Both the position numbers and the translations under genes were made by a program. From positions 1-13,974 of the forward strand of contig JAZKFS010000113.1 in assembly GCA_040386315.1 (NCBI GenBank): a stretch of 13,974 bases of DNA, read 5' to 3'. Below, piece after piece: positions 1-13,918 of the stretch. A model generated the notes under the pieces. The model worked only from the letters and a program-made list of their open reading frames with translations, had not been told where the DNA came from and did not search any database. Within the stretch, counting starts at the first letter, position 1, and each line of letters begins with the position of its first letter. This stretch comes from Bacteroidota bacterium. Lineage in GTDB: Bacteria; Bacteroidota; Ignavibacteria; Kapaibacteriales; DASPKH01.

Positions 1-326
1 AAGACCGAATGCATCACAAACCGAATGAACTTTCCGGCGGGCAGCGCCAGCGTGTAGCAATTGCCCGTGCGCTTGTTACAAAGCCATCTATCATTCTTGC
101 CGATGAACCAACGGGAAACCTGGATTCCAAAACAGGTGTGGAGATCATGCGCCTTTTTGAAAATATCTGGCGTCAGGGAAATACGGTAATTCTCGTAACG
201 CACGAAGAAGATATTGCGCGTCACGCACACCGTATTGTTCGCCTGCGCGATGGTTTGGTAGAATCTGATACGATAAATCCTGATCCGGTTACATTTGCGC
301 CGATTGATGAAAGTATTGCGCTATAG
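1..326 (+). CDS. ABC transporter ATP-binding protein, C-terminal part (MacB/LolD-like); 5' end lies outside the window
   Basis: The translation contains the ABC signature [15 protein letters not shown], the Walker B motif [11 protein letters not shown] and the H-loop VTHEED. The ORF-track Met at 9 is internal, so the reading frame is open from base 1. Stop TAG at 324-326. Two FtsX permease genes follow on the same strand. Confidence 0.9.
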
Positions 327-370: not shown

Positions 371-405
371 TCCCCCTTATTAAGGCGGACAAAGGGGGAC
401 TTTCA
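371..405. repeat. G/C-rich hairpin repeat (CCCCCTT-loop-AAGGGGG followed by ACTTTC) in the ATPase-permease spacer
   Basis: The 7-bp stem 372-378 / 392-398 encloses a 13-nt loop. The sequence is closely related to the reverse complement of 5813-5849 (tcccccttgataagggggacaaaggggattcc). It also resembles the H1 module (tctccctt..aagggagactttc) of the larger repeat at 1736-1986. Confidence 0.5.
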
Positions 406-475: not shown

Positions 476-1711
476 ATGAAATTCAGCGAACTCATAGAAT
501 CTATCCGCATTGGCTTCGACTCGCTCCGGGCGAACCTGATGCGCTCGCTGCTGGCGATGGGCGGTATCATGATCGGTATTACTGTCGTTGTGCTGATGGG
601 ATGGGCGCTCCAAGGTTTGGATAAATCACTGGAAGACACTATCAACCTACTCGGAACCGATATGCTTTATGTAGATAAATGGAATTGGGCAGGCGGAAAT
701 AACTGGGAAACGGAACGCGCGCGTAAAAACATCACACTGCAGCAGGCGAATGAGCTTGCAGAGCGGCTGACGAGCGCCGAGCTTGCTATTCCGCTTTCAC
801 AGCAATGGGGAAAGACGATCACGTATGGTGATGAAAAGCTGGCGGGAATTATGATAACGGGTACGCGCAGCGAATATTCCCTCACGCCCGCCGGAACAGT
901 AACTGAAGGACGATTTTTCTCTGCTGTGGAGGATAGATACAGCGCTAATTCCGCCGTGATAGGTTATGGAGTTTCATCAGTTCTCTTTCCAAAAGGAGAT
1001 GCGATCGGGCAGACGATTAAAATTACTGGGCATCCTTTTAAAATCATTGGCGTGATCGAAAAACGCGGTACAATGTTGCTCGATTTTGTGGATAACCAGA
1101 TATTTATTCCTCTCTCCTCCTCTATCGGATTATTCGGTAACGGCAAAAGTCTCTCAATTGCTGTAAAAGCAGGAAGCGAGGCGCGTTTAGATGAAGTGCG
1201 CATGGAAACTATCGGTCTGATGCGCTCTATCCGCAATGTCGCGCCCGGACAAAAAGAAGATTTCTCCATAAATGAATCCGAAGCTTTTAAAGAGCAGTCG
1301 GCTACCTTGCGTTTATCAGTATGGGGAGTTGGTATCGGTCTTACCTTAATTTCTTTTCTTGTGGGAATTATCGGTATTATGAATATAATGTTCGTGTCGG
1401 TAACAGAAAGAACAAAAGAAATTGGTATCCGCAAAGCTATTGGAGCGCGGCGAAGCTCCATCCTGCTACAATTTATCGTAGAATCCGCTGCATTATGCTT
1501 TGCAGGAGCTATTGTAGCATTTGTGATAAGTTCATTTTTCACGTTTGCTGTTACGAAAGCGATGGATATTAAATTCCTCACGCCGTATGTACCGCCGCAG
1601 CTTTTACTTATAGCAACATTGGTTTCTATTTTTGTTGGTATTATTGCGGGAATTATCCCGGCATTCCGTGCAGCAAAGCTTGATCCGGTTGAAGCTTTGC
1701 GGTATGAGTAG
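476..1711 (+). CDS. ABC transporter permease, FtsX/MacB family (N-terminal TM helix, periplasmic domain, C-terminal 3-TM FtsX domain)
   Basis: 411-aa ORF. It has an N-terminal TM helix (LLAMGGIMIGITVVVLMG), the conserved FtsX box ERTKEIGIRKAIGA, and hydrophobic C-terminal helices ending ...AKLDPVEALRYE. It is a paralogue of the next gene. Confidence 0.9.
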   Translation: MKFSELIESIRIGFDSLRANLMRSLLAMGGIMIGITVVVLMGWALQGLDKSLEDTINLLGTDMLYVDKWNWAGGNNWETERARKNITLQQANELAERLTSAELAIPLSQQWGKTITYGDEKLAGIMITGTRSEYSLTPAGTVTEGRFFSAVEDRYSANSAVIGYGVSSVLFPKGDAIGQTIKITGHPFKIIGVIEKRGTMLLDFVDNQIFIPLSSSIGLFGNGKSLSIAVKAGSEARLDEVRMETIGLMRSIRNVAPGQKEDFSINESEAFKEQSATLRLSVWGVGIGLTLISFLVGIIGIMNIMFVSVTERTKEIGIRKAIGARRSSILLQFIVESAALCFAGAIVAFVISSFFTFAVTKAMDIKFLTPYVPPQLLLIATLVSIFVGIIAGIIPAFRAAKLDPVEALRYE

Positions 1712-1735: not shown

Positions 1736-1986
1736 GAGAATCCCTCTGTCCTTCGGACATCTCCCTTCCTAAGGGAGACTTTCTGTATGATTGTCATTCC
1801 TGCGGAGGCGGGAATCTCACTACAGTTAGACGCGTTGGGGATTTTCCTTTTTTTTAACAATACTTTTTAAAAACTCACAACATCATGTAGTCTCTTTCGG
1901 AGTGAGATTCCTGCCTCCGCAGGAATGACCACAGAAGAAAAAAAGTCTCCCTTAGAAAGGGAGATGCCGCAGGCAGAGGGATTCTC
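1736..1986. repeat. 251-bp composite imperfect palindrome: two inverted ~86-bp copies of a hairpin-bearing repeat unit flanking a 79-bp AT-rich centre
   Basis: The left arm is 1736-1821 (gagaatccctctgtccttcggacatctcccttcctaagggagactttctgtatgattgtcattcctgcggaggcgggaatctcact). The right arm is 1901-1986 (agtgagattcctgcctccgcaggaatgacc...agtctcccttagaaagggagatgccgcaggcagagggattctc). The right arm is the near reverse complement of the left, with a few mismatches and indels. Each arm carries hairpin H1 (tctccctt/aagggaga) and hairpin H2 (attcc/ggaat). A second copy of the unit is at 10915-11113. Confidence 0.75.
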
Positions 1987-2016: not shown

Positions 2017-3246
2017 ATGAACATCCTCGAATCTATAATGATCGCCCTCGAAGCTGTTCGCAGCCAGAAACTGCGGTCTGCGCTGACGCTGCTGAGTATC
2101 GCTATCGGTATTTTTGCTATTATCGGCGTGGGAACGGCTATCACGTCGCTTGATGGTGCTATCACGGGGCAGCTGGCGAGTATGGGCGAGAACTCGTTTG
2201 TTATAAAACGTACGCCGAGCATCCAGACAGGAAATTCGTGGCGTAAATACAGGAAGCGCAAGCCCATCACCTATTCGCAGGGAGAGGATTTTAAAAGGCG
2301 GATGGAGTCCACCACGCAGATCAGCATGAGCAATTCCACAGGTGGAATGACAATAAAGGCGGCTACGCTCTCCACCAATCCTGATGTATCTCTCACCGGC
2401 TGCGATGATGTATATTTCAGCAATAATAGTATTGATGTTTCCGAAGGGCGGCCTTTCGCGGCGGATGATATTTCTCTCAACCGTCCGGTGGCGCTGATCG
2501 GGAATGATGTGGTGGTAAAACTTTTCCCTTATTCCACTCCCATCGGGCAGAGAATTACCATACAAAATCAATCTTATACTATCATAGGACTTTTAAAAAC
2601 AAAAGGGGCGATGCTGGGACAGAGCCAGGACAATCAGGTACTGATCCCCATCTCACACTTCATGCGGTACTTTACCAATGAGTGGGAAGAGTCCATTGAT
2701 ATAATGGTGCGGGCGGATAATCGCCAGGCATTGCCGGAAACGTTAGATGAAGCGATCGGTACGCTACGCGCCCTGCGCAATGTAAAGCCCTGGGAAGAGA
2801 ATAATTTTGAAATAGAAACGGGCGAATCCCTTGCCGAACAGTTCGCGGGGTTTACCGGGTTTTTGTCGAACTTTGGTCTGCTGGCGGGGGGATTTGCGCT
2901 GGCGGCGGCGGGGATCGGCATTATGAATATTATGCTCGTCACCGTCAAGGAACGCACCCGCGAGATCGGTATCCGCAAGGCAATAGGCGCGCGCAGCACA
3001 TGGATACTCACGCAGTTTATCGTGGAGGCCATCACGCTATGCCAGCTGGGGGGTATTATTGGTATTATCCTCGGTATTTTTGGCGGCTGGGGCCTGAGTT
3101 CGCTTATGTCGCTCCCGCTTTCACTTCCCGTGGGGTGGATAGTAGGCAGCGTGGTGATCTGTACGCTTATCGGCCTCTGCTTTGGGGCATATCCCGCGTG
3201 GAAAGCTGCTAAGCTCGACCCGATAGAAGCTCTACGGTATGAGTAG
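2017..3246 (+). CDS. ABC transporter permease, FtsX/MacB family (second paralogue)
   Basis: 409-aa ORF. N-terminal TM helix (LTLLSIAIGIFAIIGVG), FtsX box ERTREIGIRKAIGA, and a C-terminus ...AKLDPIEALRYE that is almost identical to the end of the preceding permease. Confidence 0.9.
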   Translation: MNILESIMIALEAVRSQKLRSALTLLSIAIGIFAIIGVGTAITSLDGAITGQLASMGENSFVIKRTPSIQTGNSWRKYRKRKPITYSQGEDFKRRMESTTQISMSNSTGGMTIKAATLSTNPDVSLTGCDDVYFSNNSIDVSEGRPFAADDISLNRPVALIGNDVVVKLFPYSTPIGQRITIQNQSYTIIGLLKTKGAMLGQSQDNQVLIPISHFMRYFTNEWEESIDIMVRADNRQALPETLDEAIGTLRALRNVKPWEENNFEIETGESLAEQFAGFTGFLSNFGLLAGGFALAAAGIGIMNIMLVTVKERTREIGIRKAIGARSTWILTQFIVEAITLCQLGGIIGIILGIFGGWGLSSLMSLPLSLPVGWIVGSVVICTLIGLCFGAYPAWKAAKLDPIEALRYE

Positions 3247-3330: not shown

Positions 3331-3729
3331 CTAACTACGTTTAAATTCATCAATTTTCTTAACCTGCACGGTTTTATCTATTCCCTGAAAATCATCCCAA
3401 TCATCAGTTATTAAATCCGCACCTAAACTTTTGGCTGTCGCTAATATAATTGCATCAGGTAATTTAATTTTTCTGAGTGTATTTTTCCTGTACTCAATTA
3501 CCTGTTCGGCAATAGCAGCATGGACTTCTACTATATCCAGATTATTAAACATTTCATCAATTAAGCCCTTTTCGCTCTCCTCCGAAAAATTATAGCCATA
3601 TACTTCCATAAAGCTAATAATGGAAATATATACCTCATCATATATAGAAAGCAACCGCTCAATATCTATCTTTTGTTTAGAAGCAAAAATGATAACATTC
3701 GTATCCAGTACTACTTTATTCCCACTCAT
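3331..3729 (-). CDS. vapC: PIN-domain ribonuclease, VapC-like type II toxin
   Basis: The N-terminus MSGNKVVLDTNVIIF has the PIN signature. The usual conserved acidic positions appear to be present (D in LDTNV, E in SFMEV, D in DAIILATA, D in LITDDWDD). I use the second ATG (3727-3729) rather than the ORF-track start at 3762. This puts a PIN-typical N-terminus on the protein and leaves only a 14-nt overlap with the upstream small gene. Confidence 0.85.
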   Translation of the reverse strand: MSGNKVVLDTNVIIFASKQKIDIERLLSIYDEVYISIISFMEVYGYNFSEESEKGLIDEMFNNLDIVEVHAAIAEQVIEYRKNTLRKIKLPDAIILATAKSLGADLITDDWDDFQGIDKTVQVKKIDEFKRS

Positions 3730-3955
3730 CGCGCACCTTTCGCTGCCAGCCGGTAGGATCATCTATAGACGAAAACATATCATGCCCTTCCATTTTTTTA
3801 AAAGCGGTCAGCAGCGCTTTCTTCTTTGAAAGAAGATCATCAGGCACATCCAGGAGCACAATAATACGGGCATACGTATTCTCGTATTTATTATACTGCT
3901 CAGGCAGCCGGATCATGCCTTTCTCTATCTTGGTTGAGAATTCTAATGCATTCAT
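3716..3955 (-). CDS. Putative antitoxin partner of the PIN toxin (80 aa, family not recognised)
   Basis: A small ORF lies immediately upstream of vapC on the same strand and overlaps its start by 14 nt, which is typical type II TA architecture. The start is taken at MNALEFSTKIEKGMIRLPEQ... (ATG complement at 3953-3955). The longer ORF-track start at 4021 is possible but adds a hydrophobic, non-conserved-looking leader. An ACGT-rich near-palindrome (tttacgtaacgtaaa, 3981-3995) sits ~30 nt upstream and could be an operator. Confidence 0.5.
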   Translation of the reverse strand: MNALEFSTKIEKGMIRLPEQYNKYENTYARIIVLLDVPDDLLSKKKALLTAFKKMEGHDMFSSIDDPTGWQRKVRDEWE

Positions 3956-4032
3956 ATTATTTCTCTCGTAGTGTGATTTCTTTACGTAACGTAAAAATAT
4001 ACAAAGAATTTCATTTTGCATAGAAGGCTATT

Positions 4033-4067
4033 AAGCCTGACCCGATAGAAGCTCTGCGCTACGAGTA
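4033..4067 (+). other. Duplicated 3'-terminal fragment of an FtsX permease gene (encodes ...KPDPIEALRYE*), direct repeat of 3211-3246
   Basis: aagcctgacccgatagaagctctgcgctacgagtag (4033-4067) compares with aagctcgacccgatagaagctctacggtatgagtag (3211-3246) at 30 of 35 identical positions. The differences are mostly synonymous third-position changes, and the in-frame stop is retained. The two copies bracket the vapBC-like insert. Confidence 0.7.
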
Positions 4068-4098
4068 GGTTTTAAAACTTTTATTCTTTAAAAGAATA

Positions 4099-4157: not shown

Positions 4158-5693
4158 TTAATCCACCATCGTCCCATTGCCTTTTACTTCCTTTGCTTCT
4201 ACAATAGTCTCCGCCGCACTTTTTAAAACCGGCTGTGCATCGCTATTAGAAGAAAGGTGATTGAAAATATTAATACCGGTAGCATTTTCAATTGTTTCGG
4301 CAAGTGACAGGACCGCTGACGGCATCTGGTTGACGAGTCTGCCAAAGCTTCCACCGTTCGTACCGCCCTGATCTATCACGCTCATTTTATCAATATTGAT
4401 CTTATTGACCGTCGAGGTAAGCTGGGTGATAATTTCCGGCAGCATATTGAGGATAAATACTTTTTCGGCGTCTGTTCCGGCAGATTGATAGGTTTCGATC
4501 ATCGTTTTGATAACGCTCAGGCGGGCCTGTCCGCTTTCATTGATGGCAGCTGCTGCTCCCTGCGCTTCTAGTTCGGCTGCTTCTTTTTTCGCGCGGGCGG
4601 GTTCGATCACATCAGCCTGTAGTTTCTGCTGCTGGAGAATTACACGCGCGCGCTGTACTTCCTGCTCAAACTGTACGCGGGCTTTTTCGCCGGATGTGCT
4701 GGCTTCCTGTTCTTTTACGATAGCGATCTTGTCTAGTTCAGCTTTGCGCACACGCAGATTGTTATTTTCATTTTCCACCTGCTGCTGTGCTATTGCCTGT
4801 GCTACACGGAGTTCGCGGTCTGATTCGATATGCGCGGCCTGGATAGTTTGCTGTGCGCGTGTTTTGGCAACTTCTGCGCGTTGATGCGCTTCGGCCTGGG
4901 CTTCATCGGCAAATGCCTGCGCGGCTGACTGCGCTTTCTTTACTTCGCGCTCTGTATCAATTTGCGCTGATTTAATTCCCTGCTCCGATCTTGCTTTGGC
5001 AACTTCCACACGCAGGCGTGCTGTAGCTTCTGCTTCTTCTGCTTCGGCAGCTTTTTCGGCTTCTGTAGTACGTGCGGCGGCAATTACCTCGGCAGTTTTA
5101 CGGCGGCCGATGGAATCTAAATATCCCGACTGGTCGGAAATATTCTGAATTTTAAAAGTATCAAGGCGAAGGCCCAGTTGTTTTAGATCTTCATCAGCTT
5201 CTTCCATTAGACTGTGAGCAAATTTAAGGCGGTCTTCGTTAATTTCTTCCGGTGTAAGCGATGCGAGAACCCCGCGAAGGTTTCCTTCAAGCGTATCTTT
5301 TGCAATTTCATGTATTCCCTCCAACGGCTTACCCAGAAAACGCTCTACAGCATTTCCAAATGTCGGCTCGGTAGAATCAATTTTCACGTTGGCAATTGCT
5401 TCCACGCCAAGAGGAATTCCCCCTTTGGAATACGCATTATGCACACTCAGCTCGATGGGAATAGTTTCCAGCGACATCTTAGCCGCCTTCTCTAAAATAG
5501 GGATCCGCACCGCGCGACCACCACGAATGATCCTGTAACCGACTGTTGTCCCGTCCGTCAGCGTACGCGAACGCCCCGAAAGGATCATCACCTCATTCGG
5601 GTGAACGATAAACAAGAACCTGCTGATGAAAAACATCACGACAACCAAAGCCAGCAGGATAATTCCGCCGACACTGAATATAAATTCGACCAT
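4158..5693 (-). CDS. Flotillin-like SPFH/band-7 protein (YqiK/FloT family)
   Basis: N-terminal hydrophobic anchor (MVEFIFSVGGIILLALVVVMFF), an SPFH-like region, then a long Ala/Glu-rich coiled coil (AEAEEAEATARLRVEVAKARSEQ...) typical of flotillins. It lies directly downstream of an NfeD-like gene. The start is placed at the ATG with a GGAGG Shine-Dalgarno 8 nt upstream (ATG complement at 5691-5693), not at the longer ORF-track start 5771. Confidence 0.85.
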   Translation of the reverse strand: MVEFIFSVGGIILLALVVVMFFISRFLFIVHPNEVMILSGRSRTLTDGTTVGYRIIRGGRAVRIPILEKAAKMSLETIPIELSVHNAYSKGGIPLGVEAIANVKIDSTEPTFGNAVERFLGKPLEGIHEIAKDTLEGNLRGVLASLTPEEINEDRLKFAHSLMEEADEDLKQLGLRLDTFKIQNISDQSGYLDSIGRRKTAEVIAAARTTEAEKAAEAEEAEATARLRVEVAKARSEQGIKSAQIDTEREVKKAQSAAQAFADEAQAEAHQRAEVAKTRAQQTIQAAHIESDRELRVAQAIAQQQVENENNNLRVRKAELDKIAIVKEQEASTSGEKARVQFEQEVQRARVILQQQKLQADVIEPARAKKEAAELEAQGAAAAINESGQARLSVIKTMIETYQSAGTDAEKVFILNMLPEIITQLTSTVNKINIDKMSVIDQGGTNGGSFGRLVNQMPSAVLSLAETIENATGINIFNHLSSNSDAQPVLKSAAETIVEAKEVKGNGTMVD

Positions 5694-5768
5694 TATTGAG
5701 CCTCCGAAAAAAAATATGAAAAGTTTTAAGAAACTGTATATTTGAATTTTCTTAAAAGTCCCCCTTAT

Positions 5769-5849
5769 CAAGGGGGATTTAGGGGGATTTCTTTTGACGC
5801 GGAATCCCCTTTGTCCCCCTTGATAAGGGGGGGGATAAGATTCTTTAGT
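5769..5849. repeat. Cluster of two poly-G/C hairpins (tcccccttatcaaggggga and cccccttgataaggggggg) in the nfeD-flotillin spacer; relative of the 371-405 repeat
   Basis: Perfect 7-8-bp C5TT/AAG5 stems with 3-nt loops lie at 5770-5788 and 5825-5847. The reverse complement of 5813-5849 closely matches 371-405. These hairpins sit in the spacer between the nfeD stop and the floT start. Confidence 0.55.
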
Positions 5850-5894: not shown

Positions 5895-6476
5895 TTAAAG
5901 ATTCTCCCCATCACGCTCAATAACGAGCGCCATACCATCTTCCATTTCTACGATCAGTACATTCTCACCGTAATGAAAATCATTGCGAACGGCTACTTCG
6001 GAGACTTTAGCCGGAATTTGCAGGACTCTCCCGTTTACATCCACGCTGATTTTCCCTTTTTGTCCCCGCGAAATATCTACGAGTACACGGGCAGTAAATC
6101 CTTTTAGCGACTGCGTATGAAGTTCGGCGCCGGATTGGGATTTTGTGAGATATTTCATGGAATTATACATCAGCCCCGCTGAGAAAAAACCAAGTACTAC
6201 AGCCATAGTAAGCGTGAGCGAGGTAGAAAAACCCAGCCAGGTGAGCGTAGCCCCGGTCAAACCAAAAAAAGCGGCAAAGAAAATAAGATTACGCAAGCTG
6301 AACCACTGCGCTACTTCGGAAAAACCCGAACCCGTATGGGCGTGCGCAGGTAGATCAATATCATCGTGAGGTATATGAATATCCGTATCGTGCCCGATAT
6401 CATGGTGCCCGCCAAAAAGGGTAAACCCGATCAGGATACTTCCGGCAAGGAGACACATGAGGTAAATTTCCAGCAT
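5895..6476 (-). CDS. NfeD-like membrane protein (short NfeD/YuaF/YqiJ type) with C-terminal OB-fold; flotillin partner
   Basis: 193 aa. TM1 (LMCLLAGSILIGFTLFGG), a His/Asp-rich loop (HHDIGHDTDIHIPHDDIDLPAHAH), two further TM helices, then a β-rich C-terminal domain (GKISVDVNGRVLQIPAK...VLIVEMEDGMALVIER) typical of the NfeD OB-fold. Gene order nfeD then flotillin on one strand matches the widespread nfeD-SPFH operon. Confidence 0.8.
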   Translation of the reverse strand: MLEIYLMCLLAGSILIGFTLFGGHHDIGHDTDIHIPHDDIDLPAHAHTGSGFSEVAQWFSLRNLIFFAAFFGLTGATLTWLGFSTSLTLTMAVVLGFFSAGLMYNSMKYLTKSQSGAELHTQSLKGFTARVLVDISRGQKGKISVDVNGRVLQIPAKVSEVAVRNDFHYGENVLIVEMEDGMALVIERDGENL

Positions 6477-6592
6477 GGCGCGTTTTACGTTTTTTGTGGT
6501 GTGGAGTTTTAAAACGAACTTGCTGTAAATTAGGCAAAAGTATTTTAAAAATCAAGAACTTAATTTTGGCGTGATCATTTTTAAAAAGAAAA

Positions 6593-6627
6593 AAGCGGAG
6601 TGAAAAATATTCACTCCGCTTTTAAAA
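6593..6627. terminator. Rho-independent terminator (bidirectional geometry) between the protease/small-ORF unit and the nfeD-floT unit
   Basis: aaaaagcggagtgaa-aaatat-ttcactccgctttt forms a perfect 10-bp stem gcggagtgaa/ttcactccgc with a 6-nt loop, flanked by an A-run and a T-run. Confidence 0.7.
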
Positions 6628-6647
6628 GAATTTTATTACCAGCTTTT

Positions 6648-6785
6648 TTACCGTTTACGAATGAAAAGCGACGTTTGCTTTTTCTCTTTTAAACGTTTTA
6701 AAAGTGATTTGCCAAAAGTTGTAATTTCATCCTGCGATTTTTTCTCAGCATCTATCCGCTCAAAAAGTGTTTTTGAATCTTTCAT
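6648..6785 (-). CDS. Possible small basic protein (45 aa: MKDSKTLFERIDAEKKSQDEITTFGKSLLKRLKEKKQTSLFIRKR); speculative
   Basis: This is the inner Met of the 94-aa ORF-track entry. The longer version would overlap the 3' end of the protease gene by 70 nt. The ORF ends 20 nt before the strong terminator at 6593-6627, so it is at least part of that transcript. No recognisable domain and no clear RBS. Confidence 0.25.
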   Translation of the reverse strand: MKDSKTLFERIDAEKKSQDEITTFGKSLLKRLKEKKQTSLFIRKR

Positions 6786-6861: not shown

Positions 6862-8157
6862 TTAGCGTGCGCCTCCTGCAATATCCTGCTCGTCATCTTC
6901 GCTGAATACATCGGGATTTTCCTCGATCTCACTTTCGGTAGTATCGCCGATCTTCGAGCGCAGCTCTAAATAACCATTGATATTTTTCAGATCTACCATT
7001 CCGATATACTGCCAGTTATCTACCACCATTAAGTGATTGCGCTCCGTTATTCTCATAATTTCAAGGGCATCATACGCGGGAGCATCAGGAGAAATAATGG
7101 TGGCTTCTCCAAAATCCTGCATAAAATCCTTTACTTTCTTGCCGCGCCATTTATTGGGAGGAATTCCCTGTATAGACTCCAGCGATATATAGCCAAGGGT
7201 TTTATCGCCGTCTATCACAGCGTAGAAATCATAAAAATGCTTATACGAATGCTCGTGAACAAGGTCGTATATATTCATGTCCGGCGTCACGGCCATACTG
7301 TTTGGATTTAAAAACTTCCGCACGGTATCATCTTTTAAAACCCGCCGCGACATTAAATGCCCGTACGACATCCGGGAAGCAATACGCACCGACAGCCCGG
7401 CTACAAACCACCACATACCTTCTACAAAGTCGGTATGGAGAAATTTATAAAATCCCAGCACCATCAAAGCAATACCCAGGATCGAACCGACATTTGCCGC
7501 AATACGCGTGGCATAGGCAATATTACGCCGCCATACCCAGATCAGCGCCCGCACCACACGCCCGCCATCAAGCGGGTATGCCGGAATAAGATTAAACGCA
7601 CAAAGCGCCAGGTTTGCCGTGGACAAAAACCGTAAAACTTCGACTGATGGCGCCGGCCAGTCATTATCACTGCCCTTCCCTTCAAGTATGGAAAATACAA
7701 ACCATAATATCAAACTAACCGCCGGCCCGGCCAGCGACAGCAGTATTTCTGATTTTGCCGTTTCGGGTTCATCTTCCTGCTCGGCTATCCCGCCAAAAAG
7801 GAAAAGAATGATCCGGCTCATCGGTGTTCCGACACTCCGCGCGGCAGCAATGTGCGCTACTTCATGCAGCAGCAGTGAGACAATATATCCTACCGCTCCT
7901 GCTAGTCCCATCATCCAGAATGTTCCGGTGGTAAATGTCGGCAACCTCTTCGGAAAAAGCTGTGTGGAAAGCGACCACATCATCAGAAAGATCAGCACGA
8001 TCCAGTACATATCCACGCGTATCTCCGCGCCAAGTATTTTCAATGTACGGAATGTCTTAAATATCGGTAGTGAACTGGTAACCATGGGCAATATTTTTTT
8101 AAAAGTGGATCGTGATGCGGTTTGGATTGCTTTTAAAAACATTTCAGCCAGCGGCAA
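6862..8157 (-). CDS. M50-family (site-2-protease-like) zinc metalloprotease with C-terminal tandem CBS domains
   Basis: HExxH motif in a TM helix (LLHEVAHIAAA), the second zinc-ligand/LDG motif (NLIPAYPLDGGRVV), multiple TM helices, then a CBS pair (…DLVHEHSYKHFYDFYAVIDGDKTLGYISLESI… / …ALEIMRITERNHLMVVDNWQYIGMVDLKNI…). The true start may be the internal Met giving MVTSSLPIFKTFRTLKILGAEIRVD (ATG complement at 8083-8085), which matches typical N-termini of this family. The longest ORF is reported here. Confidence 0.85.
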   Translation of the reverse strand: MPLAEMFLKAIQTASRSTFKKILPMVTSSLPIFKTFRTLKILGAEIRVDMYWIVLIFLMMWSLSTQLFPKRLPTFTTGTFWMMGLAGAVGYIVSLLLHEVAHIAAARSVGTPMSRIILFLFGGIAEQEDEPETAKSEILLSLAGPAVSLILWFVFSILEGKGSDNDWPAPSVEVLRFLSTANLALCAFNLIPAYPLDGGRVVRALIWVWRRNIAYATRIAANVGSILGIALMVLGFYKFLHTDFVEGMWWFVAGLSVRIASRMSYGHLMSRRVLKDDTVRKFLNPNSMAVTPDMNIYDLVHEHSYKHFYDFYAVIDGDKTLGYISLESIQGIPPNKWRGKKVKDFMQDFGEATIISPDAPAYDALEIMRITERNHLMVVDNWQYIGMVDLKNINGYLELRSKIGDTTESEIEENPDVFSEDDEQDIAGGAR

Positions 8158-8253: not shown

Positions 8254-9237
8254 ATGAATATCCTCATCATCGGCGGAACGGTTTTTCTCGGACGCCACAT
8301 CGCAGAAACTGCTTTACAAGCCGGACACAAAGTTACGCTATTTAATCGTGGCATTCACAATCCCGAACTTTTTCCCGAAGCAGAGAAAATTCACGGCGAT
8401 AGGCGAAAAGATGTTTCACTTTTAAAAAACAGGAAATGGGACGCGGTGATCGACACGTCAGGATATTTCCCGAAAGATGTGAGCACGCTGGCGGAGGTTT
8501 TAAAAGGAAGTATTTCGCAGTATATTTTTATTTCCACAGTTTCCGTTTACTCAAATTTTGACAAACCGAATGATGAAAATTCCGAACTGGCGCAATTGCC
8601 TGAAGGCGCAGATGAAACGAAAATAACCGGTGAAACATACGGCGCATTAAAAGTTCTCTGCGAGCAGGAAGTTTTAAAAGCTTTTAAAAATGAAGCGCTG
8701 ATAATTCGTCCGGGTTTGATTGTCGGGCCGCACGATCCGACGGGACGATTTACGTATTGGCCGCGCAGAATTGCGCGTGGAGGAAATATCCTTGCGCCCG
8801 GAAATCCAGCCGCGCCAGTGCAGTTTATTGATGTTCGCGATCTTGCTGAATGGACAATTCGCCTTGTGGAGGCTCGCACGACGGGAATTTTTAATGCGAC
8901 GGGGCCAAAAGAGCTTTTAAAAATGGGTGAGTTTTTAAAAGAATGTAAAACAGTTTTAAAAAGTAACGCAGATTTTACGTGGGTAAGCGAGGATTTTCTT
9001 TTAAAAAACGACGTCGCTGCGTACACGGAAATGCCGCTGTGGATTCCCGCGCAGGCGGAAGATATGAGCCGCACGGATATTTCAAAAGCAGTTGAAAATG
9101 GTTTGACATTTCACGATTTAAAAACGACAATTGAGGATACTTTAGATTGGGATAAAACTATTATCGAGAAATTCCAGCAGGACGCCAGCATGACTACAGA
9201 GCGTGAGCAGGAGCTTTTAAAAGCGTGGAATCCGTGA
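8254..9237 (+). CDS. NAD(P)-dependent epimerase/dehydratase-family protein (extended SDR)
   Basis: N-terminal Rossmann dinucleotide-binding motif MNILIIGGTVFLGRHIA. Length 327 aa and overall pattern are typical of the NAD-dependent epimerase/dehydratase family. No specific substrate can be assigned from sequence alone. Confidence 0.8.
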   Translation: MNILIIGGTVFLGRHIAETALQAGHKVTLFNRGIHNPELFPEAEKIHGDRRKDVSLLKNRKWDAVIDTSGYFPKDVSTLAEVLKGSISQYIFISTVSVYSNFDKPNDENSELAQLPEGADETKITGETYGALKVLCEQEVLKAFKNEALIIRPGLIVGPHDPTGRFTYWPRRIARGGNILAPGNPAAPVQFIDVRDLAEWTIRLVEARTTGIFNATGPKELLKMGEFLKECKTVLKSNADFTWVSEDFLLKNDVAAYTEMPLWIPAQAEDMSRTDISKAVENGLTFHDLKTTIEDTLDWDKTIIEKFQQDASMTTEREQELLKAWNP

Positions 9238-9264: not shown

Positions 9265-9975
9265 TTACTTCACAGCGTCAAGTACAGGTTTTAAAATTGC
9301 CCACACATTTTCAGCAACGATACGGTGTCCTTCCGCCGTCGGGTGAATGCCGTCCTGCTGATTCAATTTTACTACACCGCCAACTTTTTCAAGAATAAAC
9401 GGAATAAACGCAAGCCCGTTTTTCTGCGCTAAATCGCTGTACATATTTTTAAAATCTGCCGTATACTTCTGCCCGAGATTCGGCGGGAGCTGCATTCCCG
9501 CGAGAATTATTTTTACATCGGGATATGTGGATTTTGTTCTGTCAATTATTGCCTGAAGATTTTTTCGTGTATCCTCCACCGGAACGCCGCGCAGACCGTC
9601 ATTTGCGCCAAGCTCCAGCACCATGATGTCTATTTTTTCTTTTAAAAGCCAGTCAATTCTGCGTAAACCTCCGGCTGAGGTTTCGCCGCTCACGCCTGCG
9701 TTGATACTTTTAAAAGGAAGTTTTAAAGAATCAATTTTCTGCTGGATCAATGCCGGGAATGCTTCGGAAAGCTCCACGCCGAAACCTGCCGTAATGCTAT
9801 TGCCAAGAAAGAGAATGTTTTTAAAAGAAGTCGTTTGATCTGAATTTTGCGTTGCTGCGGGCGCGGATGTTTCAATCGTTGCAGTTGTGTTTTCAGGAGC
9901 TTTTTTGCAGGAGGAAAATAGCGTTACAGCTATTAATAATGCTGCCGGAAAATGTTTCGGGAAACTTGTTCTCAT
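9265..9975 (-). CDS. tesA: SGNH/GDSL hydrolase, TesA-like (acyl-CoA thioesterase I / lysophospholipase L1-type) lipoprotein
   Basis: Lipoprotein signal peptide with lipobox (LIAVTLFSSC). GDSL block ILFLGNSITAGFG, block III MVLELGANDGLRG, and catalytic block V DGIHPTAEGHRIV. It lies divergent to a ybbA-like ATPase gene exactly as tesA does to ybbA in E. coli. Residue-level similarity to E. coli TesA is recalled from memory. Confidence 0.9.
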   Translation of the reverse strand: MRTSFPKHFPAALLIAVTLFSSCKKAPENTTATIETSAPAATQNSDQTTSFKNILFLGNSITAGFGVELSEAFPALIQQKIDSLKLPFKSINAGVSGETSAGGLRRIDWLLKEKIDIMVLELGANDGLRGVPVEDTRKNLQAIIDRTKSTYPDVKIILAGMQLPPNLGQKYTADFKNMYSDLAQKNGLAFIPFILEKVGGVVKLNQQDGIHPTAEGHRIVAENVWAILKPVLDAVK

Positions 9976-10068
9976 ACTTCGCCGTATAGTTGGGTAAATG
10001 TTTTTAAAAGAAATTATTTTTTAAAGGATACTTCGACTAGCTCAGTATGAAAATTCGGTGAGCTTTTT

Positions 10069-10104
10069 AAAAACTCAAAACTCAGAATTCAAAACTCAAA
10101 ACTA
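10069..10104 (+). promoter_or_regulatory. Tandem AAAACTC heptamer repeats (x4, interrupted by GAATTC) immediately upstream of the ybbA-like start
   Basis: aaaactcaaaactcagaattcaaaactcaaaactac ends 8 nt before the ATG at 10112. It sits in the tesA/ybbA divergent promoter region. Function unknown; it could be an operator or UP-like element. Confidence 0.35.
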
Positions 10105-10111
10105 CTTAGAA

Positions 10112-10798
10112 ATGAACGTACTCGATATTCGCAACGTCAGCAAAACCTACCGCAGCGGAAAAACTAATCTCACCGTGCTTAAAGATATAGACTTTTCGCT
10201 TCCCGAGGGCGCCAGCTGCTCGATCGTTGGCCCATCGGGTTCGGGAAAATCCACTCTTCTGGGTTTGTGCGCCGGGCTGGACAGTCCGACCACGGGAACA
10301 GTCGCCATTAACGACGTGATATTGAACAAGCTAAACGAAGACAAGCGCGCACAAGTTCGCAATCAGTTCGTTGGGTTTATTTTTCAGAATTTCCAGCTCG
10401 TGCCGACGCTCACCGCGCTTGAAAACGTGATGGTTCCGCTGGAGCTGCGTGGTGAAAGCGGCAGCAAGCCGTTTGCACAGGAGCTGCTTAAGATGGTGGG
10501 GCTTGAGGCGCGCATGGGGCATTATCCGGTGCAGCTTTCCGGCGGTGAGCAGCAGCGCGTGGCGATTGCGCGGGCGTTTATTAATAAGCCGAAAATCCTT
10601 TTTGCTGATGAGCCGACGGGAAATTTGGACGGCGAAACAAGTGAGATCATTGCGAAGCTGCTTTTCGACCTGAATGCCACGCAGGGAACGACGCTTGTGC
10701 TGGTGACGCATGATCTTGACCTTGCGCGGAATACGCAGCGGATTATCCGGTTGAAGAGTGGGATGATTGTTTCGGATGAGATGAATGTGGCGGTGTGA
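10112..10798 (+). CDS. ybbA: ABC transporter ATP-binding protein, YbbA-like
   Basis: Walker A GPSGSGKST, signature [15 protein letters not shown], Walker [14 protein letters not shown]-loop VTHDL. Block-by-block similarity to E. coli YbbA from memory (e.g. [14 protein letters not shown]..I..LLFxLN...GTTL..VTHDL.LA). I choose the start MNVLDIRNVSKTY (10112), giving 228 aa, rather than the ORF-track 10058, because the upstream 18 codons are derived from the AAAACTC repeat. Confidence 0.9.
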   Translation: MNVLDIRNVSKTYRSGKTNLTVLKDIDFSLPEGASCSIVGPSGSGKSTLLGLCAGLDSPTTGTVAINDVILNKLNEDKRAQVRNQFVGFIFQNFQLVPTLTALENVMVPLELRGESGSKPFAQELLKMVGLEARMGHYPVQLSGGEQQRVAIARAFINKPKILFADEPTGNLDGETSEIIAKLLFDLNATQGTTLVLVTHDLDLARNTQRIIRLKSGMIVSDEMNVAV

Positions 10799-10914
10799 TT
10801 TTGTCTGAACTAGGATTTCTGGGATTTGAGGATTGAAGGATTTCTTTTAAAAGTTAGATTTTAAAAGGCTTCACGCAAAGGAAATGCGAAAAGCTGACGA
10901 TTTCCTGTTGACGT

Positions 10915-11113
10915 GAATCCCTCTGCCCTACGGGCATCTCCCTTAATAAGGGAGACTTTCTTCTGATGTGTTTTTTTAATTGTCATTCCCTTGAAAAAGG
11001 GAATCAACATCGGACGTTGCTTTAAAGCTTTTTGCCGTGAAGCAGAGTTTTTAAAAGCATTTTGCTTTTTGGCAACTGTTGGAGGAGATTCCCGCTTTCG
11101 CTGGGAATGACAG
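10915..11113. repeat. Second copy of the hairpin-repeat family: full left unit plus H2-type inverted partner; right outer arm absent
   Basis: 10915-10960 gaatccctctgccctacgggcatctcccttaataagggagactttc matches 1739-1790. 10981-11008 tgtcattcccttgaaaaagggaatcaac is module H2. 11084-11113 ggagattcccgctttcgctgggaatgacag is H2 in inverted orientation. The element lies inside the 573-bp ybbA-ybbP spacer. Confidence 0.7.
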
Positions 11114-11371
11114 TTTAAAAAAATACTTTTTAAAAGTTTAGATGATTGAATTAGTTTTTAAAGAAAATCCTTTAATCCTGAAATCCTATAAATCATAGTT
11201 CAGACGAAAATAAACAGGTGCTATTGACGGCAAGGGTGACCGCCCACTGCTGGTGGAATGATGTACGACCGGACACAAATAATTTCCTGATATTCTTTTT
11301 AAAAGTCTTTTAAAAGCTGGTGTTTTTAAAAACTTTTTCAATTTTACTTTTACCTTTTTACTTTTCAATAA

Positions 11372-13918
11372 ATGAATTTTCTCCGCGCACTTTTTGCTTC
11401 ATGGACGTATAAGATGGCGTGGCGCGACAGCCGCACGCATCGCCGGAAACTGCTGATGTTTATGTCGAGCATTGTGCTGGGCGTAGCGTCGCTGGTGGCG
11501 ATTGACGGGTTTGGCGAGAGTATGCAGGCGTCAATTGCGACGGAGTCGAAGTCGCTGCTGGGGGCTGACCTGGCGCTGGATAGTAAGCAGAAGTTTTCTG
11601 AGGATGCGGAGCGGCTGATTGATTCGATCGGGAGGACTTTTAAAGGTGAGCAGGCGCGGCAAACGAGCTTTACGTCGATGATCTACCTGCCGAAAAGTGA
11701 AAGTGCGAGGTTTGCGCAGATACGCGCGCTGGAGGGAAATTTCCCGTTTTACGGTGATTTTGAAACGGAACCGGCGGGTGTGACACGGCTTTTTAAAAAC
11801 AGTGAATTTGCGGTGATCGATGAGAGTTTTTTAAAAGAAGAGGGCGGCGTGATCGGCGATACGTTGCAGGTTGGCGCGGCAAAACTGATCATTAAAGGGC
11901 TTTTAAAAAAGGCGCCGGGCGAGGCATCGGTTGTGGCGATGGCTGCGCCGCGCGTGTATATTCCGGTTTCTGTCCTGGAAAAAACGGGTCTGCTTCAGCA
12001 AGGCAGCCGTATGCAGTATAAAGTGTTTTTTAAATTTCCGGAGAATGTTCGCGGGAAAGCGATCGGCGATTCACTGGATGTAAAGCTGACGAAAAATCAA
12101 ATTGATTACGAAACGCCGGAGTCACGGCAGCAGGCGCTGGAACTCGTTCTTGATAATGTCAACCGGTTTTTAAAACTTCTGGGTTTTATTGCGTTGCTGC
12201 TGGGCGGCGCGGGTGTGGCGAGCGCGGTGTATGCGTACATCCGGCAGAAACTTCCGACGATCGCGGTGCTGCGTTGCCTTGGCGCGACGGCTTCTCAGAC
12301 GTTTGCGGTGTATTGCGTGCAGGCGATCGCGATGGGATTTATTGGTTCGGTGGCGGGCGCGCTTGTCGGTGTGGCAATTCAATATTCCCTTCCCGCGATT
12401 TTTAAAGACCTCATTCCGTCTGACCTTTCGATGGTTTTGCCGCTGCGCTCAATTGGACGCGGAATCCTGACGGGCGTGGGAATGTCGCTGCTTTTTGCGA
12501 TGCTGCCGCTGCTTTCCATTCGTAAAGTTGAACCGTTTTCTGCGCTGCGTGCTTCGTTTGAGGAAGGCTTGCAAAAGCCTGATCCGCTGCGGTTTGTGCT
12601 ATATGCGGTGATCGCTGTTGCGGTGTATTTTTTCGCGTATGCGCAGACTGAAAATTACATTGCAGCAGCTGTGTATTCGGTTTCGCTTGCAGTTGTCTTT
12701 GGCGCACTGGCGCTGGCGGCGATTGTTTTACGAAAGCTTTTAAAAGCATTTTTCCCGGGTAGTTTTCCGTATGTGTGGCGGCAGGGTTTGGCGAATCTTT
12801 TTCGTCCGAATAACCAGACGCTGACGCTGATGGTAAGCCTGGGATTTGGTACGTTTTTAATTTCCATGCTGTATATTGTGCAGAGCAATCTTTTAAACCA
12901 GCTTTCCGTGGCGGGTTCGGCGGGGCAACCGAATTTCATACTTTTTGATGTGCAGAAAGACCAGCGTACGGGCGTTCTGGACATTTTAAAAACTAATAAA
13001 GCAATCATTGTAGATGAAGCGCCGATAGTTTCTATGCGCCTTGAAACGATCAAAGGCAAAACTATTGACGAAAATTCCGCTAACCCGAATGAGCGAATGA
13101 AAGTGATGCAGCGCGAATACCGCGTTACGTACCGCAATAAGCTCGCCGACAATGAAGAATTAACACTCGGAACGCTTCAAAAACGAGCGCCGGATTTGCA
13201 GCATGTACAGATCTCGCTGGCTGACCGGCTGGCAGAATTGTGGGAAGTGAAGATCGGCGATGAGATTCGTTTTAATGTGCAGGGGCTGATAATTAACGCG
13301 AAAGTGGGCTCGCTGCGCAAGGTGAATTTCAGGAAAGTGCAGACGAGTTTTCAGATCGTTTTTCCGCCGGGAGTTTTGGAAGATGCGCCGCAATTCTACA
13401 CGGTTATTATTAAAACGCCTAATAAAAACGGCGCCCAAATCCAAAGCCAGCTTGCGCAGAAATACCCGAATGTTTCCGCGATTGACCTCGGGCTGATCCT
13501 GGAAACGGTAGATAAGATCTTACAAAAGGTTGCCTCCATCATTCGCTTTATGGCGCTTTTCAGCGTGGTGACAGGGCTAACGGTACTGGCTTCAAGCATT
13601 ATCATTAGCCGCTACCAGCGCTCCCGCGAAAATGTCCTACTGCGGACGCTTGGCGCGACTGGCCGGCAGATCACGCTTATCACGCTGGCAGAATATTTCC
13701 TGCTCGGGCTACTTGCTGCGCTGACTGGAATGCTGCTCTCCTATCTCGGCTCGTGGCTGATGGTCACACAGGCGTTCCGTCTGGAATATAAACCGGAATG
13801 GGCTCTTGGGCTGGTTATTGCGCTTTGCGTAGCGCTACTTGTGATGATCATGGGATTTTTAAACAGCCGGAGTTCTTTAAAAATGCCGCCGTTGGAGGTT
13901 TTGCGGAGCGGGGTGTAG
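11372..13918 (+). CDS. ybbP: YbbP-like ABC transporter permease with two FtsX domains (848 aa, predicted ~10 TM)
   Basis: Large permease with two hydrophobic FtsX-type TM clusters (approx. aa 270-460 and 700-848), each following a soluble domain. The N-terminus (MNFLRALFASW…RRKLLMFMSSIVLGVASLVAIDGF) resembles E. coli YbbP. It follows a ybbA-like gene and is divergent to tesA, reproducing the tesA-ybbA-ybbP synteny. Confidence 0.9.
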   Translation: MNFLRALFASWTYKMAWRDSRTHRRKLLMFMSSIVLGVASLVAIDGFGESMQASIATESKSLLGADLALDSKQKFSEDAERLIDSIGRTFKGEQARQTSFTSMIYLPKSESARFAQIRALEGNFPFYGDFETEPAGVTRLFKNSEFAVIDESFLKEEGGVIGDTLQVGAAKLIIKGLLKKAPGEASVVAMAAPRVYIPVSVLEKTGLLQQGSRMQYKVFFKFPENVRGKAIGDSLDVKLTKNQIDYETPESRQQALELVLDNVNRFLKLLGFIALLLGGAGVASAVYAYIRQKLPTIAVLRCLGATASQTFAVYCVQAIAMGFIGSVAGALVGVAIQYSLPAIFKDLIPSDLSMVLPLRSIGRGILTGVGMSLLFAMLPLLSIRKVEPFSALRASFEEGLQKPDPLRFVLYAVIAVAVYFFAYAQTENYIAAAVYSVSLAVVFGALALAAIVLRKLLKAFFPGSFPYVWRQGLANLFRPNNQTLTLMVSLGFGTFLISMLYIVQSNLLNQLSVAGSAGQPNFILFDVQKDQRTGVLDILKTNKAIIVDEAPIVSMRLETIKGKTIDENSANPNERMKVMQREYRVTYRNKLADNEELTLGTLQKRAPDLQHVQISLADRLAELWEVKIGDEIRFNVQGLIINAKVGSLRKVNFRKVQTSFQIVFPPGVLEDAPQFYTVIIKTPNKNGAQIQSQLAQKYPNVSAIDLGLILETVDKILQKVASIIRFMALFSVVTGLTVLASSIIISRYQRSRENVLLRTLGATGRQITLITLAEYFLLGLLAALTGMLLSYLGSWLMVTQAFRLEYKPEWALGLVIALCVALLVMIMGFLNSRSSLKMPPLEVLRSGV

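Follow-up and report, generated by a model that had tools for sequence, protein, structure and literature searches.

The spacer between two co-oriented FtsX-type permease genes, FtsX1 and FtsX2, on contig JAZKFS010000113.1 of an uncultured Bacteroidota bacterium carries a palindrome of 251 bp (positions 1736-1986). This palindrome is probably a mosaic of two known kinds of repeat, inserted into the AT-rich, TTTTAAAA-bearing spacers of a Kapabacteria-like genome, and any effect on the operon would be a by-product. The inner ~150 nt would represent an element of the NIME or MITE (miniature inverted-repeat transposable element) kind, ended by inverted hairpins of the dRS3/NTS type (TGTCATTCC-N10-GGGAATCTCAC). 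On each side, this element would be flanked by a triplex motif of the BoxC/PIT/TM kind with a small G+C hairpin in its second loop. The case is built on the anatomy of the element, empty orthologous spacers in the nearest relatives, homologous inner elements elsewhere in a relative, and a three-way covariation that runs through the whole family of triplex modules. The analysed window is the entire contig of 13,974 bp, to which the module counts and gene searches refer.

Anatomy of the composite palindrome

FtsX1 stops at 1711 and FtsX2 starts at 2017, leaving a gap of 305 nt. As a preliminary description of this DNA had proposed, the gap contains two inverted arms of ~86 nt (1736-1821 and 1901-1986) around a core of 79 nt. 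In a gapped alignment, the arms are identical as reverse complements at 77 of 90 positions (86%), and their inner 29 nt are 97% complementary. Since the TTTTAAAA motifs on either side are palindromes too, the palindrome in fact spans 1711-2013. The final ~30 nt ahead of each start codon are undisturbed by the elements.

Folding likewise bore out the earlier suggestion of one long hairpin. The 305-nt spacer, folded as RNA, forms a single long hairpin of -154.7 kcal/mol, compared with -70.9 +/- 5.1 kcal/mol for shuffled sequences (z = -16.6); folded as DNA, it gives z = -17.3. One arm folded alone yields three local hairpins, termed H0, H1 (TCTCCCTT-N3-AAGGGAGA) and H2. Two hairpin modules per arm, H1 and H2, had been recognised before, whereas H0 and an upstream tract, ATCCCTCT, had been overlooked. 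Nearest-neighbour folding considers Watson-Crick pairs only, and this third tract is left unpaired in the fold. Each arm had also been treated as one 86-bp unit; it consists instead of two unrelated known modules, which are also found apart.

Triplex-motif modules in the window

The outer module of each arm comprises three tracts in the order 5'-ATCCCTCT-(small hairpin H0 or linker)-TCTCCCTT-loop-AAGGGAGA. Of these, the first is the mirror of the second: TCCCTCT upstream mirrors the stem strand TCTCCCT and is not a direct copy of it. A terminator/antiterminator arrangement based on Watson-Crick pairing was rejected, since the upstream tract is a mirror repeat and not a direct repeat. On the G-rich strand, the order is TCTCCCTT-loop-AAGGGAGA-H0-AGAGGGAT, and all 8 triples fit the rules of the purine motif (G.G-C, A.A-T, T.A-T). 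H1 is the duplex part of this predicted intrastrand triplex motif, which is of the BoxC, PIT or TM kind.

With one mismatch allowed, the H1 core TCYCCCTT-N3-AAGGGRGA is found 6 times in the window, compared with 0 in 200 shuffles, and perfect modules of 8 triples occur 4 times, compared with 0 in 300 dinucleotide shuffles. The published ITxF definition specifies Y-R-(reverse-Hoogsteen strand) tracts with stems of 6-15 nt, at most one mismatched triple and loops of 1-6 nt (PMC4666352). In tracts, stems and triples, five modules fall within it: M1-M4 have 8/8 canonical triples, and M5 has one mismatch (Table 1). M1 is a class IV motif on the plus strand and a class II motif (purine motif, 8 canonical triples) on the minus strand. 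M4 differs from M1 by T>C, T>C and A>G, a covariation confined to one triple. The first loop has 3 nt in every copy, while the second has 3 nt in M4, 2-4 nt in M5 and M6, and is the 10-12-nt hairpin H0 in M1, M2 and M3. Within the window, H0 reads GTCC-ttc-GGAC, GCC-tgc-GGC or GCCC-tac-GGGC. Over copies and phyla, its variation is compensatory (GTCC/GGAC, GCC/GGC, GCCC/GGGC, GTCAC/GTGAC, GTCT/AGAC).

Two further locations listed in the preliminary description required revision. The copy at 371-405 exists, but it is decayed and its C-rich strand lies on the minus strand (M6); it is 92% complementary to 5806-5831. The copies in the nfeD-floT spacer also exist, at 5759-5788 (-) and 5804-5832 (+), within 5755-5835, rather than at 5769-5849. 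The mRNA-sense strand is C-rich in 3 modules and G-rich in 3, so that there is no strand bias with respect to transcription. A multi-branch RNA model with an outer 'P1' helix (GAGAATCCC / GGGAATCTC) was dropped, single modules without a partner being common.

Triplex modules in other genomes

A genome collection was scanned with a pattern whose loop measured 4 nt, one more than the 3 nt of the window copies. The scan returned more than 116 loci, distributed over groups of the candidate phyla radiation (CPR), Binatia, metagenome-assembled genomes (MAGs) of delta-proteobacteria and Thermodesulfobacteriota, Acinetobacter, Alistipes/Rikenellaceae, Balneolaceae and others. Although the flank was unconstrained by the scan, ~90% of the matches share the consensus AAATCCCTCT-AAA-TCTCCCTTT-NN-AAAGGGAGA-CTTT, and it was by this recurrent upstream tract that the three-tract module was recognised. 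A metagenome scan with the window-type loop gave seven contigs (24-44% G+C), in which a small hairpin takes the place of AAA. The TMECO consensus is present in L072 and in L121, adjoining a window-type module and an H2 hairpin. The triplex consensus was absent from IMG/VR. Many of the 4-nt loops contain TTGACA, which could be read as a -35 box; this promoter reading was set aside, as the window loops lack TTGACA and no constant distance to TATAAT-like sites is kept.

Of ~194 hairpins with all-pyrimidine stems (130 loci), 148 have the exact mirror of their stem core in the 40 nt upstream. In the same hairpins, a direct repeat was found in 9 cases and a downstream mirror in 9, and shuffled upstream flanks gave 9.3 under a looser match that allows A for T. 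When the linker was limited to 6 nt and one mismatch was accepted, the counts were 113 for the mirror, 12 for the direct repeat and 2.7 for shuffled flanks. Many counted modules belong to one family and are non-independent, and the covariation case rests on the number of distinct core types: 18 asymmetric stem cores are accompanied by their own mirror tract (for example, CCTCCC/CCCTCC, CTCCCC/CCCCTC, TCTCCCC/CCCCTCT, TTTCCC/CCCTTT and CCCCTCT/TCTCCCC). The third tract co-varies as a mirror and not as a direct repeat, as the ITxF definition describes. The most frequent deviation, in which A replaces T facing an A-T pair, is a canonical T.A-T triple when read on the G-rich strand. There, G faces G-C and either A or T faces A-T, in line with the rules of an antiparallel purine-motif triplex. 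One intrastrand-triplex module would thus be conserved over very distant phyla, with a covariation that a triplex alone explains. The module tolerates a structured second loop, and the published triplex finder would overlook such copies.

Triplex modules are found singly in many genomes, including after single genes. MAGs of Binatia and delta-proteobacteria carry a tail-to-tail pair of them within a ~180-nt element that has its own terminal inverted repeats (TIRs), CAGGGTCTCGTCAAAGTC...GACTTTGACGTTGCCCTG. Placement by design between stoichiometric partners does not seem likely, as the same modules occur after single genes, within tsaE and in this TIR-bounded MITE.

Several individual loci deserve description in their own right. 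In two CPR (Shapirobacteria-like) contigs (L126 1573-1618 and L007 ~6150-6190), tsaE, here a fused Sua5-TsaE gene, contains an in-frame triplex module at the same site, which is translated as ...TSPTFVIYNEYET[NPSKSPFDKGDF]KKFLHFDLYR.... The linker is AAA in one contig and an H0 hairpin in the other, and the insertion resembles the intragenic Rickettsia palindromic elements (RPEs). A Rikenellaceae MAG (L039 249-725) carries four tandem triplex modules spaced 181, 91 and 181 nt, with GGCTTTGCCATTGACATTTAC ahead of each. In Acinetobacter spp. (L023, L070, L082), one triplex module is kept at one orthologous spacer. The purine tract AAGGGAGA lies there 4 nt before the downstream ATG and may double as a sequestered ribosome-binding site; the A. 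junii module has a hairpin in its linker.

The inner element and its dRS3/NTS-type hairpins

The H2 hairpins resemble dRS3, which forms the palindromic core of NTS, a repeat of 28 nt (CGTCATTCCCGCGMAVGCGGGAATCYRG; PMC11893778). The dRS3 pattern ATTCCC-N8-GGGAAT is exact at 10985-11004 and occurs with one mismatch at 1796-1815 and with two mismatches at 1907-1926. At up to 2 mismatches, there are 5 matches in total, compared with 0.82 expected, which places the hairpins in the dRS3 group; the fourth hairpin copy has an N9 loop. SsnA, a GIY-YIG nuclease of Neisseria, binds and cuts NTS solely as single-stranded DNA (ssDNA), and the positions critical for binding and cutting are the bases that immediately precede the palindrome and the C that follows it (PMC11893778). 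By eye, these positions are kept in the window, with GTC upstream and C downstream of the palindrome. The H2-type copies of the relative described below match 25/28 NTS positions. A stretch of 24 nt from the right-hand H2, GATTCCTGCCTCCGCAGGAATGAC, is identical in a metagenome contig (L121, 34% G+C) and in three IMG/VR contigs, one of which has a dozen such hairpins.

The second copy reported earlier, at 10915-11113, is real. After a left part of 47 nt with 89% identity come H2, a core and a second H2 in inverted orientation; a triplex module flanks this inner element (element B) on a single side. Of the features typical of MITEs, the inverted ends and the dispersal of homologous copies are present. 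The inverted H2 pair with its core (~1787-1935, ~150 nt) is a separate unit with the architecture of a NIME (Neisseria intergenic mosaic element) or MITE. Judged by their distribution, the dRS3-type and triplex modules are independent, as each is found without the other.

NTS-like hairpins were also observed in viral-classed contigs. L130 (IMGVR_UViG_3300036760_001528) carries 12 of them in 11.7 kb, and in L129 and L131 they adjoin triplex-like modules (AAATCCCCCCTCGCTCCCCC...GGGGGGA).

Empty sites and dispersal in relatives

The next relatives of the window's FtsX-type permease come from JGI and ENA metagenomes and share 74% identity with it; those at ~60% belong to Kapabacteria/Kapaibacterium. 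In the two closest relatives (L117 and L119), the operon encodes an outer-membrane factor, an adaptor, an ATPase and two permeases. Their FtsX1-FtsX2 spacer measures only 67 bp (L117) or 44 bp (L119), the ATPase-FtsX1 spacer of L117 measures 89 bp, and none of these orthologous spacers contains G+C hairpins. A further contig, L133, derives from the same organism as L117 and encodes an 848-aa permease that is 85% identical. Its ATPase-permease (ybbA-ybbP) spacer has 330 bp, compared with 573 bp in the window, and lacks both element B and the surrounding 54-nt inverted repeat; other small hairpins are present.

In alignment, the inner element is 71% identical to L117 13762-13914, and L133 4097-4249 aligns with it as well. 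Subterminal blocks such as ACGCGTCyAACyGkAGTGAG are part of the match. Both loci are non-orthologous to the window spacer. This relative has two inner elements yet no triplex module in 43.8 kb. The comparison of orthologous loci, a check proposed in the preliminary description, has thereby given empty spacers in the nearest relatives and homologous copies at other loci, and it upholds the view of a dispersed non-coding repeat of REP/BIME/MITE character with no transposase in view. On sequence comparison, the FtsX1-FtsX2 palindrome is an apparent insertion into the spacers of this lineage.

Two side observations concern the ybbA-ybbP spacer. The second composite element lies within the 54-nt inverted repeat (10799-10852 and 11156-11209), which is 85% complementary and contains four GGATTTnn units. 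This repeat is missing from the relative's spacer and is probably another nested repeat element. Near the start codon of the 848-aa permease, a block of ~55 nt (window 11226-11275, L133 ~9851-9900) is almost identical in both genomes, reading GACGGCAAGGGTGACCGCC..CTGCTGGTGGAATGATGTACGACCG. It has no Rfam match, the rest of the spacer is unalignable, and the block may be a leader or operator.

Proposed mechanism and competing explanations

A mosaic of inserted repeats would most likely work in the following way. Both kinds of module may act as ssDNA structures, exposed in replication, repair or DNA uptake, as the studies cited here suggest. The NTS-type hairpins would serve as sites for an Ssn-like nuclease or a site-specific recombinase, and the triplex modules as polymerase obstacles or recognition structures. 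Such a scheme would entail triplex formation in vivo, an Ssn-like partner in the genome and a corresponding means of spread. Any effect on the permease operon would be secondary; for example, the ~110-bp RNA hairpin could be cut by RNase III or could protect 3' ends. The palindrome is probably not a purpose-built operon regulator, and its predicted long RNase III-type hairpin may have a side effect on the mRNA. The long spacer between the two MacB-type permease genes should then be regarded as inserted selfish or domesticated repeats and not be annotated as a regulatory RNA.

Several points weigh against the mosaic of known repeats. The 28-nt NTS consensus CGTCATTCCCGCGMAVGCGGGAATCYRG, which is defined with at most 1 mismatch, has no match in the window even at up to 3 mismatches, and the window hairpins bear the tag TGTC/GGTC and not CGTC. 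BoxC/TMECO in the strict sense (CCCTCNCCC-N3-6-GGGNGAGGG-N3-GGGNGAGGG) likewise has 0 matches in the window, the second loop of 10-12 nt in three modules exceeds the 1-6 nt of ITxF, and in vivo footprinting in E. coli did not detect the triplex (PMC4666352). The 14-kb window contains no GIY-YIG domain or motif and no RAYT, HUH or other transposase gene; a regular-expression search for GIY-YIG motifs across related loci, a weak test, also returned none. A target-site duplication (TSD) is not callable, because both flanks consist of the abundant TTTTAAAA motif. Finally, 4 of ~5 co-oriented spacers in the window carry modules, which leaves room for selection on the operon mRNAs.

A more far-reaching version of the triplex part is conceivable but rather doubtful. 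The triplex module would be one cosmopolitan family, nearly identical in sequence in CPR, Binatia, Thermodesulfobacteriota, Acinetobacter and Bacteroidota, the folded ssDNA triplex would be selected in vivo, and it would be the substrate of a structure-specific ssDNA enzyme that spreads the modules. Selection on an ssDNA triplex would be suggested by the three-way covariation, the A/T ambiguity fitting purine-motif rules and the structurally conserved loop-2 hairpin. By analogy, the putative enzyme would stand to the triplex as RAYT to REP and Ssn to NTS, and it would explain the clustering with NTS-type hairpins. If true, this would give a function to BoxC/PIT elements, a question open since the 1990s. 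The triplex module travels with dRS3/NTS-type hairpins, whose partner enzyme Ssn was discovered in 2025; taken together, these points offer a concrete route to the missing partner of BoxC/PIT elements.

Among the explanations that compete with the mosaic of inserted repeats, a selected cis-acting operon RNA is the least implausible, although it too appears unlikely. The long hairpin would be cut by RNase III, shield the upstream mRNA or attenuate read-through, and would thereby set the ratio of the permease subunits, as would the copies in the other three spacers. The very stable RNA fold of the spacer, the position of every window copy between co-oriented genes and the intact ~30 nt before each start codon are all in keeping with such a role. 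In addition, H1 hairpins with T-rich tails were scored as terminator-like by a consensus scan, and RNase III is known to accept MITEs such as Neisseria NEMIS as substrates (reference cited in PMC3733652). However, the nearest relatives encode the same operon without the element in the same spacers, and the modules are oriented 3:3 with respect to transcription. Modules also lie outside operons, in frame in tsaE and in a MITE, and viral contigs carry H2-type hairpins beside a triplex-like module of the CCCCCC type. The window scores 24 terminator-like sites, which is not above the 19.1 +/- 4.5 of shuffles; nor did a promoter consensus scan of the window exceed shuffles. PIT/BoxC elements showed neither promoter nor terminator activity (PMC4666352). 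Rfam 15, applied to the window at E <= 1, gave merely sub-threshold, spurious miRNA-like matches due to the long hairpin, and at E <= 0.1 on seven related loci it gave no structured-RNA family for these elements. The stoichiometry-tuning function suggested in the preliminary description is not upheld by these contexts, the balanced orientation and the inactivity of PIT/BoxC.

A classical MITE is very unlikely. In that case, all 251 bp would make up a single unit, derived by deletion from an insertion sequence (IS) and moved in trans by the transposase of that IS, and the arms would be its TIRs. In its favour, the arms are long and inverted, relatives have empty sites and related copies exist at other places, and the ~180-nt element of Binatia and delta-proteobacteria, with true TIRs, does carry the triplex module. 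Against this, the arms are separable: element B has a one-sided triplex module, the relative has the inner element with no triplex module, and solitary triplex modules occur in many genomes. The arms moreover differ by compensatory H0 changes and indels, and are therefore not a recent single unit, and neither a TSD nor a parent IS is seen. A REPIN, that is, a REP doublet mobilised by a RAYT (an IS200/IS605-like tyrosine transposase), is the least credible of all, since the inverted, intergenic and mosaic doublet of short G+C hairpins that recalls it has no GTAG tag beside H0, H1 or H2, lies in a window without a RAYT, and contains in H2 a CGTC/dRS3-type hairpin, a type with no dedicated RAYT known (PMC3733652) and with ties to Ssn nucleases (PMC11893778).

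Gene context and other features of the window

The features of the window are collected in Table 1. A search for tRNA and tmRNA genes in the window found none, the whole element had no match among plasmids, and a full-text literature search for the raw element sequences returned nothing relevant.

Table 1. Positions of repeat modules and genes in the 13,974-bp window
Feature	Position	Strand	Composition or remark
Composite palindrome	1736-1986		TM module and NTS-like hairpin, core, then NTS-like hairpin and TM module, both inverted
M1	1740-1778	+ (C-rich strand)	third tract ATCCCTCT 1740-1747; H0 GTCCTTCGGACA 1748-1759; TCTCCCTT 1760-1767; loop CCT 1768-1770; AAGGGAGA 1771-1778
H2-left	1792-1819	+	TGTC-ATTCCTGC-GGAG-GCGGGAAT-CTCA; dRS3 pattern with 1 mismatch at 1796-1815
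Inner-element core	1820-1902		AT-rich, with TTTTTAAAAA motif; subterminal blocks homologous to L117 13762-13914 and L133 4097-4249
H2-right	1903-1930	-	inverted; 24 nt GATTCCTGCCTCCGCAGGAATGAC
M2	1946-1982	- (C-rich strand)	ATCCCTCT / linker hairpin GCCTGCGGCA / TCTCCCTT / TCT / AAGGGAGA
M3	10917-10955	+	ATCCCTCT / GCCCTACGGGCA / TCTCCCTT / AAT / AAGGGAGA
M4	5759-5788	-	CCCCC subfamily: ATCCCCCT / AAA / TCCCCCTT / GAT / AAGGGGGA
M5	5804-5832	+	head-to-head with M4; one stem mismatch and one third-tract mismatch
M6	371-400	-	decayed; on +: TCCCCCTT / ATT / AAGGCGGA / CAAA / GGGGGA
Element B	10981-11112		second inner element: NTS-like hairpin, ~80-nt core, inverted NTS-like hairpin (palindrome 11088-11108, N9 loop)
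ABC ATPase	9-326	+	C-terminus
FtsX1	476-1711	+	MacB_PCD+FtsX permease
FtsX2	2017-3246	+	MacB_PCD+FtsX permease
PIN gene	3331-3762	-	
Flotillin-like gene	4158-5771	-	Band_7
193-aa open reading frame	5895-6476	-	
M50 peptidase	6862-8157	-	
Epimerase	8254-9237	+	
GDSL lipase	9265-9975	-	
ABC ATPase	10058-10798	+	
FtsX permease	11372-13918	+	848 aa

The motif TTTTAAAA is the commonest octamer of the window, with 60 copies (4.3 per kb) compared with 1.9 expected from dinucleotide shuffles; half of the copies are coding and half lie in the 2 kb of non-coding DNA. Its density is 4.0-4.6 per kb in the relative represented by L117 and L133, and 0.7 per kb in L119. It has the look of a highly iterated palindrome specific to this lineage, in the manner of the cyanobacterial HIP1.

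The last 51 nt of FtsX2 (3196-3246) recur at 4018-4068 with 80% identity, 770 nt downstream. The enclosed cassette (3331-4021, minus strand) holds the PIN-domain gene and an overlapping 101-aa open reading frame, which resemble a toxin-antitoxin pair; in L117, ychF directly follows FtsX2. The repeat of the FtsX2 end and the PIN pair suggest a small cassette integrated at the FtsX2 3' end. On the minus strand, 6581-6692 gives a sub-threshold L20_leader match (39.1 bits against a gathering score of 58.7, E = 8e-5). A strong terminator-like hairpin at 6591-6623 overlaps this match and is probably all that it represents.

Comparison with known systems

RPEs and MITEs such as Correia/NEMIS are, like the window elements, small palindromic repeats whose sites are empty in relatives, and the in-frame module in tsaE parallels the RPEs within Rickettsia genes. 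In contrast to them, all window copies are intergenic, and no TIR/TSD pair is identified.

The enterobacterial REP/BIME and REPIN-RAYT systems share the mosaic of short G+C hairpins, the inverted pairs and the location in operon spacers. The mosaic build of the E. coli BIMEs and of the Neisseria NIMEs is comparable to that of the window palindrome. One of the hairpin types in the window, however, has a third, mirror-symmetric tract, which REPs lack.

The Neisseria dRS3/NTS/NIME group is matched by the exact ATTCCC-N8-GGGAAT of element B, with GTC before and C after, and by the arrangement of inverted pairs around a segment, which in NIMEs has 50-150 bp. The differences are the failure of the window copies to match the 28-nt consensus and their divergent tag. 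An NTS system would be expected to include an ssnA gene (GIY-YIG cd10448) in the same genome, often with the repeats on its flanks. The dRS3 repeats have been reported as a phage recombinase target (PMC11893778). CGTC-tagged REPs, including dRS3 and RPE-4/6, occur in Proteobacteria, Chlorobi, Bacteroidetes and other phyla (PMC3733652).

For the triplex modules, the relevant systems are BoxC of E. coli, then the PIT ('potential intrastrand triplex') elements and then TM/TMECO, which are successive names of one kind (PMC4666352; Hoyne & Maher 2000 as cited there; Holder et al. 2015, NAR). TMECO-kind repeats belong to class II, and their complementary strand to class IV; they lie between genes, show no strand bias and often form inverted ('palindromic') pairs (PMC4666352). 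Such motifs form very stable triplexes in vitro, stall polymerases in vitro and mark variable or unstable loci (PMC4666352). The window modules agree in having a pyrimidine tract, its purine complement and a mirror third tract on one strand, with class II or class IV triples. They are likewise intergenic and multi-copy, lack strand bias, occur in inverted pairs and combine conserved stems with variable loops. They differ in sequence, with TCTCCCTT/AAGGGAGA/AGAGGGAT or the CCCCC variant and 8 triples, compared with CCCTCNCCC/GGGNGAGGG/GGGNGAGGG and 9 triples in TMECO. The host is an uncultured Bacteroidota lineage, and the window variant is common to CPR, Binatia, Acinetobacter and others. Finally, unlike in TMECO, the second loop of three window copies is a 10-12-nt G+C hairpin with compensatory changes.

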